Positions 39,309-58,616 of a stretch of 64,000 nucleotides of DNA are shown here, in pieces. This DNA comes from Saprospiraceae bacterium (GTDB lineage Bacteria; Bacteroidota; Bacteroidia; Chitinophagales; Saprospiraceae). The notes below the pieces were generated by a model. It did not search any database, was not told the DNA's origin, and saw nothing but the letters and a program-made list of their open reading frames with translations. The translations under genes and the position numbers were made by a program. Where the stretch lies: NCBI GenBank assembly GCA_041746735.1, contig JBGTGP010000051.1, forward strand, positions 56,434-120,433. The letters run 5' to 3'. Position 1 is the first letter of the stretch, and each line of letters opens with the position of its first letter.

Positions 39309-39353
39309 AACTTGACTGAATCTGGGGGCGAAGGTAGTCAATATGTAAATGTT

Positions 39354-39374
39354 CTTGCGCGTATTGCGCGCAAG
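39354..39374 (-). other. perfect 8-bp GC-rich hairpin (CTTGCGCG-CAATA-CGCGCAAG on the minus strand) 46 nt upstream of the metG ATG
   Basis: Inverted repeat read directly from the sequence. Function (leader structure, weak terminator of tag or protein site) unknown. Confidence 0.5.
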
Positions 39375-39376
39375 GT

Positions 39377-39438
39377 GGGTAAAGGGTAAAGGGTAAAGTG
39401 GGGAGTGGGGAGTAGGGAGTAGGGAGTGGGGAGTGGGG
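39377..39438 (+). repeat. heptamer microsatellite block 1: (GGGTAAA)3 then (GGGGAGT/AGGGAGT)5 + GGGG
   Basis: Read directly from the sequence. 7-nt period throughout. Confidence 0.95.
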
Positions 39439-39485
39439 TGCTTCGACCCGCTTGACACATCCTCGTGCTACAGCTCAGCAACCGT

Positions 39486-39538
39486 GGGGAGTGGGGAGTA
39501 GTGAGTAGTGAGTGGGGAGTGGGGAGTGGGGAGTGGGG
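39486..39538 (+). repeat. heptamer microsatellite block 2: (GGGGAGT)2 (AGTGAGT)2 (GGGGAGT)3 GGGG
   Basis: Read directly from the sequence. Separated from block 1 by a 47-bp unique spacer. Confidence 0.95.
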
Positions 39539-39547
39539 AATAGTTCT

Positions 39548-40129: not shown

Positions 40130-40266
40130 GGGAGGAAGGTAAGGAGAAGTGGGATGATTGGAAATGGAAAAGGGGTGGGTGGGCGGATGATATTGGATAA
40201 GCTGGTGAAAGGGATTGGAGGGGCGGGTGGTGCTTGGAGGATGAGAATCCGGAAGCAAACTGTCAG

Positions 40267-40790
40267 GACTGATTTCGTCGAAATACGTCGGAAGATGACT
40301 GTGGTTATTAGGTTGTGGGCATTTTCAAAACAACATATTATTGCAATCTAACTTATGTTTGAAGTGACTGATTTCGTCGAAATCCATCGCGAGATAGTTG
40401 ATTTTATTGGGTCGTAGAGGTTTTCAACACAATATATTATTAAATTATTAATATGTTTCATCCGACTGATTTCGTCGAAATCCGTCGCGAGATAGTTGAT
40501 TTTATTGGGCTGTAGAGGTTTTTAACACAATATATTATTAATATTGTTAATATACTTTATCCGACTGATTTCGTCGAAATCCGTCGCGAGATAGTTGATT
40601 TTGTTAGGTTGTAGAGGTTTTTAACACAATATATTATCAATATTATTAATATGTTTCGTCCGACTGATTTCGTCGAAATCCGTCGCGAGATATTTGCTTT
40701 TATTGGGTCGTAGAGGTTCTTAACACCATATATAATTGAAATTTATTATTCATTCAATCCAACGGAGTTCATAGAAATCCCTCAATCAAC
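40267..40790 (+). repeat. Array A: tandem 99-bp repeat, five units plus a decayed sixth
   Basis: Unit starts (GACTGATTTCG...) at 40267, 40366, 40464, 40563 and 40662, with a degenerate copy from 40761. Counted directly from the sequence. Confidence 0.95.
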
Positions 40791-40942
40791 CCCCGTGATC
40801 ATTGACATCCCGTAAAGTCCAGCTTTCATCCTTCATCCCATCCGCTTCAATAACCTCTGTACATCCAACACGCCTACCCTACCCCTCACCTTCTCCATAG
40901 CAGCCATCACCTCCCTCACTTAAACCTGTCCAGCCAAATCCG

Positions 40943-40950
40943 TACTTTTG
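40943..40950 (+). promoter_or_regulatory. Bacteroidota-type -7 promoter box TACTTTTG upstream of hmgA
   Basis: Exact match to the TAnnTTTG consensus, 12 nt before ATG 40963. No convincing -33 TTTG seen. Confidence 0.3.
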
Positions 40951-40962
40951 AAGAAAAAAACA

Positions 40963-42126
40963 ATGCCCGTCTACCATACACTCGGATCCATCCCCCAGAA
41001 ACGCCACACGGTATTTGAAAAACCAGCAGGTGGAATCCACTACGAGCAACTTTTTGGTACTATCGGCTTCGACGGAATGTCATCCCTCCTCTACCACCTG
41101 CATCGTCCCACTCAGGTCCGACACATAGGAGAAGCCATAAACGTCATGCCCAAGATCGCAGTCGAACATAATATGACTGCCCGCCTGCTCAAAGGTTTTG
41201 ATATACCCCGCGCCAACGACTGGCTGACGTCCCGCCATCCGCTCCTCATCAATAAAGACATACATGTGGGCCTGGCCGCTCCCACTCAATCCCTGACCGA
41301 ATATTTTTATAAAAATGCCGATGCCGATGAAATGATCTTTGTTCACCGCGGATCGGGCACCCTGCGTACTTTCCTCGGCAATATCCCTTTCGAGTACGGA
41401 GACTATCTGATCATACCCCGCGGCATGATCTACCAGATTGATTTCGATACGGAAGACAATCGCCTGCTCTATGCAGAATCCTTCCACCCGATCTACACGC
41501 CTAAGCGATATCGCAACTGGTTCGGCCAACTCCTCGAACACTCCCCATTTTGTGAACGCGATTACAAACTGCCCCGCGTACTGGAAACCTATGATGAAAA
41601 AGGAGATTTTCTGATCAAAATCAAAAAGCAGGGACAACTTCATCAACTGATCTATGCCACCCATCCTTTTGATGTTGTCGGATGGGACGGCTACAATTTT
41701 CCGTATGGATTTTCCATTCACAACTTTGAACCCATTACCGGACGTGTACACCAACCGCCCCCAGTTCATCAGACCTTTGAGACCAAAGCCTTTGTCGTGT
41801 GCTCTTTCTGCCCGAGACTCTACGATTATCATCCGAAAGCGATCCCGGCACCTTACAACCACAGTAATATTGATTCCGACGAAGTCCTCTACTATGTGGA
41901 TGGCGATTTTATGAGCCGCAACAACATCGCACAAGGCCATATCACGCTCCACCCTGCCGGGATTCCGCATGGACCAGCACCCGGAGCCTACGAAAGAAGC
42001 ATCGGCCAGACCGTAACAGAAGAACTGGCTGTCATGATCGACACCTTTGCACCACTCATGGTCACTGAGCATGCGCTCAAGATTGATGATGGTGTCTACT
42101 TTCAATCCTGGATCGGAGAGGAATAA
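40963..42126 (+). CDS. hmgA: homogentisate 1,2-dioxygenase
   Basis: About 387 aa bacterial short-form HGD with conserved C-terminal HPAGIPHGP region. Clustered with fahA and hppD. ATG 40963 preferred over TTG 40948, which lies inside a TAnnTTTG box. Confidence 0.85.
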   Translation: MPVYHTLGSIPQKRHTVFEKPAGGIHYEQLFGTIGFDGMSSLLYHLHRPTQVRHIGEAINVMPKIAVEHNMTARLLKGFDIPRANDWLTSRHPLLINKDIHVGLAAPTQSLTEYFYKNADADEMIFVHRGSGTLRTFLGNIPFEYGDYLIIPRGMIYQIDFDTEDNRLLYAESFHPIYTPKRYRNWFGQLLEHSPFCERDYKLPRVLETYDEKGDFLIKIKKQGQLHQLIYATHPFDVVGWDGYNFPYGFSIHNFEPITGRVHQPPPVHQTFETKAFVVCSFCPRLYDYHPKAIPAPYNHSNIDSDEVLYYVDGDFMSRNNIAQGHITLHPAGIPHGPAPGAYERSIGQTVTEELAVMIDTFAPLMVTEHALKIDDGVYFQSWIGEE

Positions 42127-55789: not shown

Positions 55790-56806
55790 ATGGGGTCTAA
55801 AGGCAAAATTAAGTGTACAAATGCCAGGTACTTGCTGCTTGCGGTGGTGATGATCTGTTGTGTGCGGATGGAATCCGGGCTGGCGCAGCGGGATACCCTT
55901 GGTTTTTGGGATACGCCCGGGGCTTTCCATAAGGGTCGGTTTTGGGGGGCTGCAGGGACGGGGAGTGTCGCGTTGGGCGGGACCTTGTTTGCGCTGAGTA
56001 CGTTTTGGTATAATGACTATCCGCAAACCTCATTTCACTTTTTTGATGACCGTCGGGAATGGCTTCAAATGGATAAGGCCGGGCATATGTTTACGGCCTA
56101 TTTTCTGTCGGATTGGAGTTATTATGGGGCGCGATGGACGGGCATGTCGCGCAGTTCTTCGATCTGGGCGGGGATGTTTTCGGCATTTGGGATACAGGGG
56201 TCGCTGGAGGTACTAGATGGGTTTTCGTCGGGATGGGGATTTTCATGGTTTGATATTGGGGCCAATCTGGCGGGGAGTGCTTTGTGGGGTGTACAGCAGG
56301 CTTCGTGGGATGAGCAGCGGATACGGATGAAAGTTTCGGGTACCTATCGCCGGTATCCGAATGAGATAGTTACGGGTATACCGGGTGGAAGTAATACACT
56401 GGCAATGCGGGCAAAGGACTTGTATGGGTCTGGTATTTTGCAGACGTTTCTGAAGGATTACAATGCACAAACAATATGGATATCGGTCAATATCGGTTCG
56501 TTTTTGGGTGAGAGTCAGCGCTTTCCGGGGTGGCTCAATTTGGCTGTTGGGTATGGGGCTGAGAATATGTTTGGTGGTATAGAAAACAAGTGGGAGGCTC
56601 AAGGCAACAAGTATGAGGTTTCGGGGGAATTGTATCCTCGCTATCGGCAGTGGTATTTATCGCCGGATGTGGATTTGAGTCGTATACGGGTCAAGAGTCG
56701 GCCTTTTCGTATGGTGTTGGGGATGTTGAATGTGTTTAAGTTGCCTGCTCCGGCGTTGGAGATTCGGGGACGGGGGGGTGTGAGGTGGAGGTGGTTGCAT
56801 TATTAG
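55790..56806 (+). CDS. DUF2279-like (YfiM-like) membrane/periplasmic protein
   Basis: DKAGHMFTAYF and a G/W-rich pattern, as remembered for DUF2279. The family assignment is tentative. Confidence 0.45.
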   Translation: MGSKGKIKCTNARYLLLAVVMICCVRMESGLAQRDTLGFWDTPGAFHKGRFWGAAGTGSVALGGTLFALSTFWYNDYPQTSFHFFDDRREWLQMDKAGHMFTAYFLSDWSYYGARWTGMSRSSSIWAGMFSAFGIQGSLEVLDGFSSGWGFSWFDIGANLAGSALWGVQQASWDEQRIRMKVSGTYRRYPNEIVTGIPGGSNTLAMRAKDLYGSGILQTFLKDYNAQTIWISVNIGSFLGESQRFPGWLNLAVGYGAENMFGGIENKWEAQGNKYEVSGELYPRYRQWYLSPDVDLSRIRVKSRPFRMVLGMLNVFKLPAPALEIRGRGGVRWRWLHY

Positions 56807-56822
56807 GTTGAGGGTTTGCAAG

Positions 56823-57430
56823 GGACGGATTTCGACTCAAAAACACATGTAGGATTTTAATAATACGTTGTTTCGCAAATGGCTATAGCCCAATAACAAC
56901 AGGCATCCAGCGACGGATTTCGACGAAATCAGTCCAAGAGAACATATTAAATGTTTCAATAATACGTTATTCTGAAAATGGCTACAGCCCAATATCCACA
57001 GCCAACCAGCGACGGATTTCGACGAAATCAGTCGGAGAGAACATATTATATATTTAAATAATACGTTGCTTTAAAAATGGCTACAGCCCAATATCCACAG
57101 CCAACCAGCGACGGATTTCGACGAAATCAGTCCAAGAGAACATATTAAATGTTTCAATAATACGTTATTCTGAAAATGGCTACAGCCCAATAACCACAGC
57201 CATCCAGCGACGGATTTCGACGAAATCAGTCGGAGAGAACATATTATATATTTAAATAATACGTTGCTTTAAAAATGGCTACAGCCCAATAACCACAGCC
57301 ATCCAGCGACGGATTTCGACGAAATCAGCCGGGTCAAACATTCCAGAAAAACCAACAATTTCTACCCTGAAAATCCTCCACATCCCAATAATACCAACCA
57401 AACCCCGGCGTATTGCGCCGAAATCAGCCC
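56823..57430 (-). repeat. Array B: the same 99-bp repeat family in inverted orientation, four intact units flanked by decayed ones
   Basis: CGACGGATTTCGACGAAATCAG at 56911, 57010, 57109, 57208 and 57307, exactly 99-bp phase. Decayed copies at 56823 and 57406. The core is the exact reverse complement of the array A core. Confidence 0.95.
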
Positions 57431-57476
57431 AAGCCATCATACCCCACCATACTCCTATTGAAACCGCCGAAAACCC

Positions 57477-58616
57477 CTACTCCCCTATTCCCAACCACGA
57501 CTTCACCGCACCTACCAACTGCTTCTGGATATTTGGATTCGCTCCAACCGCCAATATTACCGATATCAGCAAACCAATCAACGCCGACCCCACATCTTTT
57601 AGAATAATCCGTAGGGCCTTAAACTTATGCGTATATCCCGTCTTGATCCGCGAAAGACTGATCGCAATCTCCCGCCCACCAATCACACCCAAAAAGACCC
57701 ACGTCGTACTCATCGGGACCGTACTGATAAACAATTTATAAATCAACATCACCACATAACTGAAGTCAATCAGCGTCGCCGCCCGAACATCCGATATACG
57801 GGACTTCTCACTCACAATCCGTTGGATCTTATCTCCCTTGAGGTACAACAATAAGCCTAACCCAAAAAAGATCGTCCCCCCGAAGATGAGAAACTGAAGC
57901 GTATCCAACCGCCGCGGTAAAAAAACCGCCACATTGGCCCCATCCTGCATCACCCAGACCGACCACAAACACCCGCTGACGATCCACTGGATCACCGTCC
58001 AGGCAGGATTGGTCTTTCGCTGGCTAAAATATTTTTTAATCAGATTGTACCCCAGATACCAGATCAGAAAGGAAACCATAAACGCCAACCCATATCCCGA
58101 AAGACTCTTGCCAATGATGGACGTAATCCCCGTTGCATCCACACTAAACACACTCAACATCAAAAATGTCGTCGATACCGGCATCCGCAGCCGCGTCAGA
58201 ACCAACAAAACGATAGGCGCAATAATCTGGAAAAAACTGAACTCCTCCGGGTGAGGATACTTGGTGACCCCCTCATCATTCAGTAATCGCTGGTACGTCA
58301 CATCACCATCATAGTAAAACCAACTAAACGTGACGGTGATCAAAAAAATACCCCCAATAAACAGCCACATTATCCACCACTTCCTCTTTTTGTTGCTTTC
58401 AATAAATGTCCCCAGGGATTGAATACTGTCATTGGCCACTGTCGAATACGCCGCAAATAAAAATCCCACCCACATCGCCGACCGGCCAAAATAGACCATC
58501 ACAGATGCCAGCAATGCTCCCGTCAGTACAATCAGTAAAAATGTCCGCTCGGTCACCAGGTAATCCAGAACGTTGAGCGGCCGGTTGGCCCGGGGTGCTT
58601 TCCTTAGCTTGGACAT
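57477..58616 (-). CDS. polytopic membrane protein, distant PiT/PHO4 (inorganic phosphate transporter)-like
   Basis: Duplicated PiT-like signatures: VANDSIQSLGT and QDGANVAVF (GANDVAN-like), PVSTTF and PMSTTW..GVIGG (PVSTTH..G-like). Confidence 0.45.
   Translation of the reverse strand: MSKLRKAPRANRPLNVLDYLVTERTFLLIVLTGALLASVMVYFGRSAMWVGFLFAAYSTVANDSIQSLGTFIESNKKRKWWIMWLFIGGIFLITVTFSWFYYDGDVTYQRLLNDEGVTKYPHPEEFSFFQIIAPIVLLVLTRLRMPVSTTFLMLSVFSVDATGITSIIGKSLSGYGLAFMVSFLIWYLGYNLIKKYFSQRKTNPAWTVIQWIVSGCLWSVWVMQDGANVAVFLPRRLDTLQFLIFGGTIFFGLGLLLYLKGDKIQRIVSEKSRISDVRAATLIDFSYVVMLIYKLFISTVPMSTTWVFLGVIGGREIAISLSRIKTGYTHKFKALRIILKDVGSALIGLLISVILAVGANPNIQKQLVGAVKSWLGIGE

Follow-up and report, generated by a model that had tools for sequence, protein, structure and literature searches.

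The 64,000-nucleotide stretch of DNA analysed here (the window), taken from contig JBGTGP010000051.1 of a Saprospiraceae bacterium, contains two tandem arrays, A and B, whose units are built around a 25-nt imperfect palindrome. Our leading explanation, held at about even confidence, is that the arrays represent a clade-restricted palindromic element resembling repetitive extragenic palindromic (REP) sequences and bacterial interspersed mosaic elements (BIMEs), that its core is probably kept by a sequence-specific factor, likely as a hairpin, and that the arrays have probably grown by unequal recombination. The repeat family has so far been seen in one Saprospiraceae clade only. In this explanation, the relevant unit is a short imperfect palindrome that consists of an invariant (G/T)ATTTCG-N-CGAAAT(C/A), one unpaired flank position and 3-5 varying complementary positions.

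The palindrome, CGACTGATTTCGTCGAAATCCGTCG, lies at 40463-40487 on the forward strand and can be written CGAC-T-GATTTCG-T-CGAAATC-C-GTCG. Its 12-nt arms are complementary at 11 of 12 positions (92%) around a single central base, exactly as a preliminary description made from the sequence alone had reported, coordinates included. With at most one mismatch allowed, the dyad GATTTCGNCGAAATC occurs ten times in the window, against 0.02 occurrences expected, and all ten lie inside arrays A and B; these ten good copies in 64 kb are all intergenic. A profile of the whole unit, run over the 64 kb, found no match beyond the two arrays. The preliminary description had suggested a search for isolated copies near promoters; none was found in the 64-kb window, near promoters or elsewhere, and the copies that we found occur only in arrays. 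Outside the arrays, neither half-site is striking in its frequency (ATTTCG, 11 versus 17.7 expected; CGAAAT, 32 versus 20.8 expected). The exact 24-nt core is present in A3-A5, matching the three of five A units counted earlier, and in four of the five B units rather than in all five as had been claimed, the copy at 57307-57330 reading GGCT.

Because the units within an array are recent copies of one another, the comparison between lineages is the informative one. The consensus of A2-A5 differs from the consensus of B at 23 of 99 columns, none of which falls within the 24 columns of the core, and the longest identical run between the two consensus sequences is 26 (permutation P = 0.007). Outside the core, A and B units are 51-69% identical, somewhat less than the 70-75% estimated earlier for whole units. 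Compared outside the core, unit A1 reaches only 56-69% identity with the other units, yet its core carries a single change. The three core changes observed are singletons (A1, A2 and B1), and none is compensated. A 12-nt box in the spacer (ATTGGGCTGTAG, 40504-40515, forward strand), which had also been described as retained, turned out not to be specially conserved: its consensus is ATTGGGTCGTAG in A and ATTGGGCTGTAG in B, it differs at 2 of 12 positions compared with 21 of 62 elsewhere in the unit (Fisher P = 0.32), and it is exact in only 5 of the 10 units. The proposal that constraint acts on the core, which does not drift as the remainder of the unit does, is supported by these comparisons and by the recurrence of a 13-nt core in otherwise unrelated units elsewhere, which makes the evidence much stronger than a single window alone could provide.

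That recurrence emerged from a loose scan of metagenomes for two copies of ATTTCGNCGAAAT 70-100 nt apart, which returned 54 loci. Eight of them look like coincidences in coding DNA (seven with high GC content and one 21-bp coding repeat). The other 46 are low in GC and mostly intergenic, share the 13-nt core ATTTCG-N-CGAAAT and have array periods of 37, 45, 47, 57, 79-80 and 85-99 bp. The other 74 nt of the window unit are shared by none of the metagenome loci. Across the clade, we count at least 25 distinct array loci. The metagenome loci were picked by the core itself, which biases them towards an invariant core; only the window and one further locus, L107/L108, are free of that bias. In clade DNA sampled without requiring the core, all tandem arrays with a period of at least 15 bp carry it (window A, window B and L107/L108); the other tandem repeats in this sample are microsatellites of 6-24 bp.

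All loci that could be placed by means of a neighbouring gene belong to the Saprospiraceae clade of the window. Eight loci (L070, L102, L103, L094, L098, L075, L101 and L052) carry orthologues of genes in the window or in its relatives at 65-99% identity; for example, metG is 84-85% identical to that of the window in L070, L102 and L103, and hmgA is 89% identical in L070 and L102. The close named relatives of the window MetRS are Saprospiraceae, as are the nearest proteins to the symporter that adjoins the 37-nt arrays, some of which lie on contigs shared with relatives of the window MetRS. A search for CTGATTTCGNCGAAATNNNTCG in 185,579 species genomes, the source genome not among them, yielded 44 single matches in unrelated phyla and no arrays, a result that we attribute to chance; three matches in Bacteroidota lie in coding-like sequence. 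An exact 22-mer had no match in the metagenomes or in viral contigs, the tandem pattern had none in viral contigs, and a distant BLAST search of array A against a plasmid collection likewise gave no match. A full-text literature search for the motif retrieved unrelated primer or short hairpin RNA sequences only, and no earlier description of dispersed palindromic repeats in Saprospiraceae was found in it.

Orthologous sites reveal how little apart from the core is retained. The spacer between DUF2490 and hmgA holds an array in L070, L102/L103, L094 and L107/L108 (the last of these selected by protein alone), and array A of the window occupies the matching tag-hmgA spacer. At this site, the unit length is 99 bp in the window, 96 bp in L070, 97 bp in L102/L103 and 89 bp in both L094 and L107/L108. 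No spacer homology was detected between the window array and the syntenic hmgA arrays (P = 0.11-1.0), the core being the sole match. The spacer between a Wzy-like gene and uvrD holds 97-bp units in L060 and 47-bp units in L083/L089, with Wzy proteins that are 76% identical. The presence of different units at the same site may mean that arrays persist while everything but the core turns over, or that the site is colonised repeatedly.

The distribution of the element among relatives is patchy. It is present in the window, L070, L102/L103, L094 and L107, and neither the motif nor a long-period array was found in five relatives that together cover 122 kb (L048, an hmgA relative, and L104, L105+L112, L110/L111 and L113, which were picked by MetRS or symporter similarity). 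Zero arrays in 122 kb compare with two in the 64 kb of the window, a density at which about 3.8 would be expected (Poisson P about 0.02). The site is absent from the regions upstream of hmgA in L048, L104, L105 and L110. Two pairs of filled and empty sites could also be compared: L048, otherwise nearly identical to L070, has about 25 nt at the place where L070 carries an array, and the spacer between the MFS and symporter genes measures about 400 nt in L101, L052 and L075 versus 24-51 nt in L112 and L113. No target-site duplication was evident by eye at the filled and empty sites.

The 25-mer is predicted to fold, at -11 kcal/mol on either strand, into a 6-bp stem closed by a GNC triloop, followed by a 1x1 mismatch and a 4-bp outer stem. 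The single-base centre, which had been thought to make a poor RNA hairpin, therefore does not rule a hairpin out. Among 41 array types, pairing in the flanks beyond the core amounts to 52.3%, compared with 40.6 +/- 2.3 in shuffles, and the flank covariation score is 0.368, compared with 0.19 in shuffled sequences (0 of 500 reach the observed value) and 0.10-0.21 for slid partners, although these shuffle-based statistics are inflated because the array sequences are mutually related. Flank position 1 is G-C in 23 and T-A in 10 of the 41 array types, and position 2 is unpaired in 35 of them (T.C in the window and mostly A.C elsewhere). Positions 3-6 pair with differing sequences, CGAC/GTCG in the window and TGTC/GACA or TGAC/GTCA in a family of arrays with 37-nt units; in L061, the flanks pair as GAAAAYGT/ACGTTTTC. 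An outer stem of variable sequence, a constant mismatch and an unchanging apex are what would be expected of a hairpin whose tip is read by a protein, and we regard the hairpin as the likelier form. Compensatory change had been proposed in the preliminary description as the means of separating a structural role from a protein site, and it gives an answer in two parts: the core keeps its sequence and is never compensated, which favours a site, whereas the flanking arms covary, which favours a structure.

These features suggest a mechanism. A trans-acting, sequence-specific protein would recognise the core, most likely on a hairpin folded in single-stranded DNA or RNA, and might itself be the enzyme that spreads the element. 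Such recognition would explain why the core persists while the 20-75 nt separating the copies are free to drift. Two copies in head-to-tail orientation could then undergo unequal recombination, which would duplicate the palindrome together with its spacer and thus produce arrays that are bounded by palindromes and contain higher-order repeats. Arrays do begin and end with palindromes, both in the window and at the metagenome loci. Within arrays, units are 73-97% identical outside the core. Array B contains a 198-bp higher-order repeat (56837-57331), in which B1 and B3 are 96% and B2 and B4 are 97% identical outside the core; these duplicated blocks indicate that the arrays were duplicated recently. 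In L101, a 111-bp higher-order block comprises three 37-nt subunits. The higher-order blocks in array B and L101 point to recent unequal exchange.

Several of these properties are shared with clusters of REP and BIME sequences, the closest known kind of repeat. REP clusters consist of single units or dimers repeated in tandem with flanking DNA, and REP families are unevenly distributed among species (Di Nocera et al. 2013, PMC3733652). Likewise, the element described here is a short imperfect extragenic palindrome with a predicted hairpin, at 25 nt within the 20-40 bp class, that is repeated in tandem with flanking DNA at many loci across the clade and is very unevenly present among related species. 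The family of CGTC REPs has stems of 8-9 bp that start with A-T pairs and loops of 4-5 nt, TGTC being a variant of the tag; these REPs occur without a RAYT gene (PMC3733652). The stem of the window palindrome also starts with A-T pairs, and some copies in relatives begin with TGTC.

A number of observations nevertheless weigh against a REP-like element that acts as a hairpin. The window copy lacks an unpaired tag, whether GTAG or CGTC, and its CGAC and GTCG ends pair with each other; its CGTC sits inside the paired 3' arm, and some relatives begin with TGTC or GTAGG. Both stem and loop are shorter than those of CGTC REPs, at 7+4 bp with a 1-nt centre (an inner stem of 6-7 bp and a triloop when folded). 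All copies are arranged head to tail, whereas described REPs are mostly head-to-head or tail-to-tail dimers, head to tail being rare (PMC3733652). Unlike REPs, moreover, the copies found are confined to arrays, with no singletons, and no RAYT gene was seen. No transposase, of the Y1/RAYT or any other type, was found in the window or beside any array, so that mobility is inferred only from presence and absence between relatives. The invariance of the core among the metagenome loci is partly built into the search, because the core was required. Among 79 copies belonging to the 37-nt family, uncompensated mismatches are frequent at flank positions 3 and 4 (C.T in 30 and A.A in 22), a pattern that looks like a sequence motif rather than a clean stem. 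The half-site CGAAAT is also found in other arrangements, which counts against a clean hairpin. Finally, no compensated change was found within the core, which could also reflect a double-stranded protein site.

The last of these points leads to an account that we judge unlikely, in which the arrays are clusters of duplex sites for a dimeric host DNA-binding protein of an operator, nucleoid-associated or centromere-like kind, with one dimer bound per 15-bp dyad GATTTCG-N-CGAAATC. Such sites would suit the invariance of the sequence itself, the free central base and the uncompensated core changes, and some repressor families, for example TetR/tetO, typically use odd-centred dyads of 15 bp. The recurrence of the half-site CGAAAT as CGAAAT-AT-ATTTCG-C-CGAAAT in L102/L070, the paired dyads 15 bp apart in L060, L094 and L107, and the fixed asymmetric TGnCAG-core-CC(G/T)ACA of the 37-nt family, with its uncompensated mismatches, also favour it. 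However, the motif is missing from the 122 kb of syntenic DNA of the five relatives, including the orthologous region upstream of hmgA, and sites are filled in some relatives and empty in others. No isolated copies were found, no regulator, partition or replication gene was found near the arrays, and the periods of 37-99 bp have no common helical phase. Complementarity reaches into the varying flanks, which a fixed protein would not require. The neighbours of the arrays are functionally unrelated (amidase, O-antigen ligase, PGI, CarB, RNase Y, glutamine synthetase, cytochrome c and several transporters), and an all-against-all comparison of open reading frames (ORFs) within 3 kb of the arrays detected no recurrent neighbour family beyond synteny. 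The gene pairs around arrays occur in all orientations (~14 tandem, ~8 convergent and ~3 divergent), which is not the pattern of promoter elements. Neither a coherent regulon nor conserved orthologous promoters, which together with isolated copies would mark an array of operators, emerged. The earlier interpretation of the palindrome as an operator, parS-like centromere or iteron is thus not supported, given its context, its scattered loci, the turnover of its arrays, the lack of isolated copies and shared phase, and its absence from 122 kb of related DNA.

The resemblance behind that interpretation is to the F-plasmid sopC type of centromere, in which tandem direct repeats each contain a short inverted repeat that is bound by a ParB-type protein. 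As in sopC and iterons, the arrays are direct repeats, each with one sequence-conserved dyad. Unlike sopC and iterons, they are chromosomal, lie at many loci among housekeeping genes with periods of 37-99 bp and are missing from close relatives; they have no neighbouring partition or replication gene, and the plasmid collection holds no match.

We also assign a low probability to the arrays acting as RNA, in which case they would be transcribed as the 3' or intergenic portions of neighbouring messages and their hairpins would stabilise, terminate or insulate those messages or soak up an RNA-binding protein. The sense strand folds better (-29.4 versus -18.6 kcal/mol, z = -3.6, for a B unit and -20.5 versus -13.8 for an A unit), and two further predicted hairpins contain G-U pairs. 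In B-type units, a terminator-like hairpin followed by a run of U (57078-57103, reverse strand; absent from A2-A5) lies on the strand of the upstream gene. Both window arrays are co-oriented with an adjacent gene, the module of the L102 type is co-oriented with its flanking genes at 3 of 4 loci, and ~22 of 25 arrays lie downstream of at least one gene. Against a role as RNA, the orientations of the gene pairs show no significant departure from randomness, and the 37-nt family has no consistent orientation relative to its neighbours (about 5 to 4). The second and third hairpins are kept neither between A and B nor in relatives, the core lacks covariation, and the 37-nt family has a conserved A.C mismatch on one strand. 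Rfam 15 gave no match at the gathering threshold over the whole window, with only sub-threshold matches in array A (E = 0.83 and 3).

A slim possibility, in our estimation, is that the invariant hairpin is the recognition element of an undescribed system, for example a mobilising enzyme unrelated to RAYT that would seed head-to-tail arrays and extend them, or a host protein peculiar to the clade, for which the arrays and their G-rich and C-rich flanks would serve as landmarks on the chromosome or on transcripts. If so, the arrays would constitute a new class of bacterial repeat rather than a variant of REP.

A neutral minisatellite whose core is conserved by chance or by local gene conversion is strongly disfavoured and very improbable: although array units are recent duplicates (up to 96-97% identical), so that the window provides only about three independent lineages (A1, A2-5 and B), and although the 12-nt box shows no excess conservation, the identity run remains significant even from two consensus sequences (P = 0.007), the core recurs in unrelated units at the same and other loci and in separate genomes, and every array with a period of at least 15 bp in the core-independent sample carries it.

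Other known repeats resemble the arrays in part. The mycobacterial MIRUs and the pneumococcal BOX elements (with tandem boxB) have units that are homologous along their whole length. Similar to these, the arrays comprise tandem intergenic units of 40-100 bp that vary in copy number and contain predicted hairpins; unlike in MIRUs and BOX, the loci have only a palindrome of 13-25 nt in common and are unrelated over the remainder of the unit. As in CRISPR arrays, palindromic repeats alternate with spacers, and arrays start and end with a repeat, but the spacers are homologous within an array (73-97%), the periods go down to 37 bp and scans of the window detected no cas domains.

The same 13-nt core over periods of 37-99 bp, with unrelated intervening sequence even at orthologous loci, amounts to a clean natural experiment, since a constant core among unrelated spacers allows the constrained part to be separated from the drifting part. 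The family predicts a specific protein partner. Because the element is unlike a gene-regulatory or segregation site, its wider biological weight is moderate unless that partner protein is new. The arrays also have practical consequences, in that they break short-read assemblies and could serve as strain-typing markers. Short reads of this organism from sample SRR28170463 assemble into contigs (Logan L045, L046 and L047) that break at both arrays; one contig of 16,271 bp runs exactly from array A to array B, and a second contig ends at array B.

In the window, Tandem Repeats Finder delimits two 99-bp arrays, at 40267-40749 and 56854-57433, which are mutually inverted. Array A, as we delimit it (40266-40784, forward strand), consists of five 99-bp units, A1 (40266-40364), A2 (40365-40462), A3 (40463-40561), A4 (40562-40660) and A5 (40661-40759), followed by a degenerate sixth palindrome (40760-40784) that matches the 25-mer at 18 of 25 positions. 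In addition to the copy at 40463-40487, its palindromes lie at 40266-40290, 40365-40389, 40562-40586 and 40661-40685, all on the forward strand. Array B (56823-57430, reverse strand) has five good units, B1 (57233-57331), B2 (57134-57232), B3 (57035-57133), B4 (56936-57034) and B5 (56837-56935), preceded by a degenerate unit B0 (57332-57430) and ended by a terminal half-palindrome (56823-56836). Its palindromes, all on the reverse strand, occupy 57307-57331, 57208-57232, 57109-57133, 57010-57034 and 56911-56935, with a broken copy at 57406-57430.

Pfam scans of window ORFs of at least 150 amino acids detected housekeeping chromosomal genes only, among them metG, tag, hmgA-fahA-hppD, transporters, uvrC, recG and methylmalonyl-CoA mutase, with no mobile-element, partition, replication or cas gene. 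Several other explanations of the arrays were considered and set aside. The period of 99 bp is divisible by 3, which would suit a coding repeat, but neither array is spanned by any ORF. The inverted arrays do not appear to be the ends of a 16-kb mobile or invertible segment, as the intervening housekeeping genes are ordered as in relatives that lack arrays. A fork trap at the replication terminus was suggested by a peak of the cumulative GC skew near 40 kb; that peak stems from a local G-rich tract, and the idea was dropped because arrays also occur at many loci. Tandem promoters were rejected as well: sigma-70-like sites are not in excess, and the Bacteroidota -7 motif is, by eye, poorly matched.

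Both window arrays, and many metagenome arrays, are flanked by G-rich sequence on the left and C-rich sequence on the right, with GC skews of +0.4 to +0.75 and -0.3 to -0.7, respectively. For array A, the G-rich flank spans 40132-40265 (forward strand, GC skew +0.75) and the C-rich flank spans 40785-40962, up to the start of hmgA (forward strand, GC skew -0.51); for array B, the corresponding flanks are 56760-56822 and 57431-57560. No such skew was found in the other intergenic regions of the window, except in a heptamer tract at 39309-39547. The pattern is symmetric under reverse complementation and therefore confers no polarity. The C-rich tract upstream of hmgA is present in relatives too, including L048, which has no array there. 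The flanks were considered as pairing arms or homologous leaders, and they are neither complementary nor homologous to each other; they contain no canonical G-quadruplex motif. The final ~50 nt of a DUF2279 ORF (55790-56806) extend into the G-rich sequence that flanks array B, where they specify a Gly-rich tail, and in L070 and L102 a DUF2490 ORF ends within the G-rich flank and has a C terminus that differs from that in L048. Arrays and their flanks can thus rewrite the ends of neighbouring ORFs.

One type of array, found in L102, L070, L083, L062, L077 and L060, has a second conserved palindrome, TTCGTA-GATA-TACGAA, after the core. In the same type, the sequence CGAAAT-AT-ATTTCG just before the core is itself a palindrome, and the module is thus a chain of overlapping dyads built from TTCG and CGAA.

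The surroundings of array A differ among relatives in other ways. In the window (40131-40963), the DUF2490 gene has been lost relative to several relatives that keep it between tag and hmgA; elsewhere this interval contains a gene of 433-440 amino acids (L104 and L110) or a gene for an ArsR-type helix-turn-helix protein (L105). Directly before the hmgA start codon, at 40935-40962, lies AAATCCGTACTTTTGAAGAAAAAAA, which is near-identical in L048, L070 and L102 and has a shorter A run in L094; it is probably a conserved 5' leader or promoter-proximal element of hmgA.

The heptamer tract between metG and tag contains runs of GGGGAGT at 39397-39438 (6 copies) and 39484-39539 (8 copies), which are separated by a unique segment of 45 nt, and it holds G-quadruplex-type motifs. 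Intergenic microsatellites with periods of 6-8 nt and multiples thereof were also observed in L048, L104, L105, L107 and L110. Their sequences all differ (for example, CTCTCGC, AAATCAA, GGGCAGT, CACTCAC and CGCCTT), and short-period intergenic microsatellites look like a habit of the clade.

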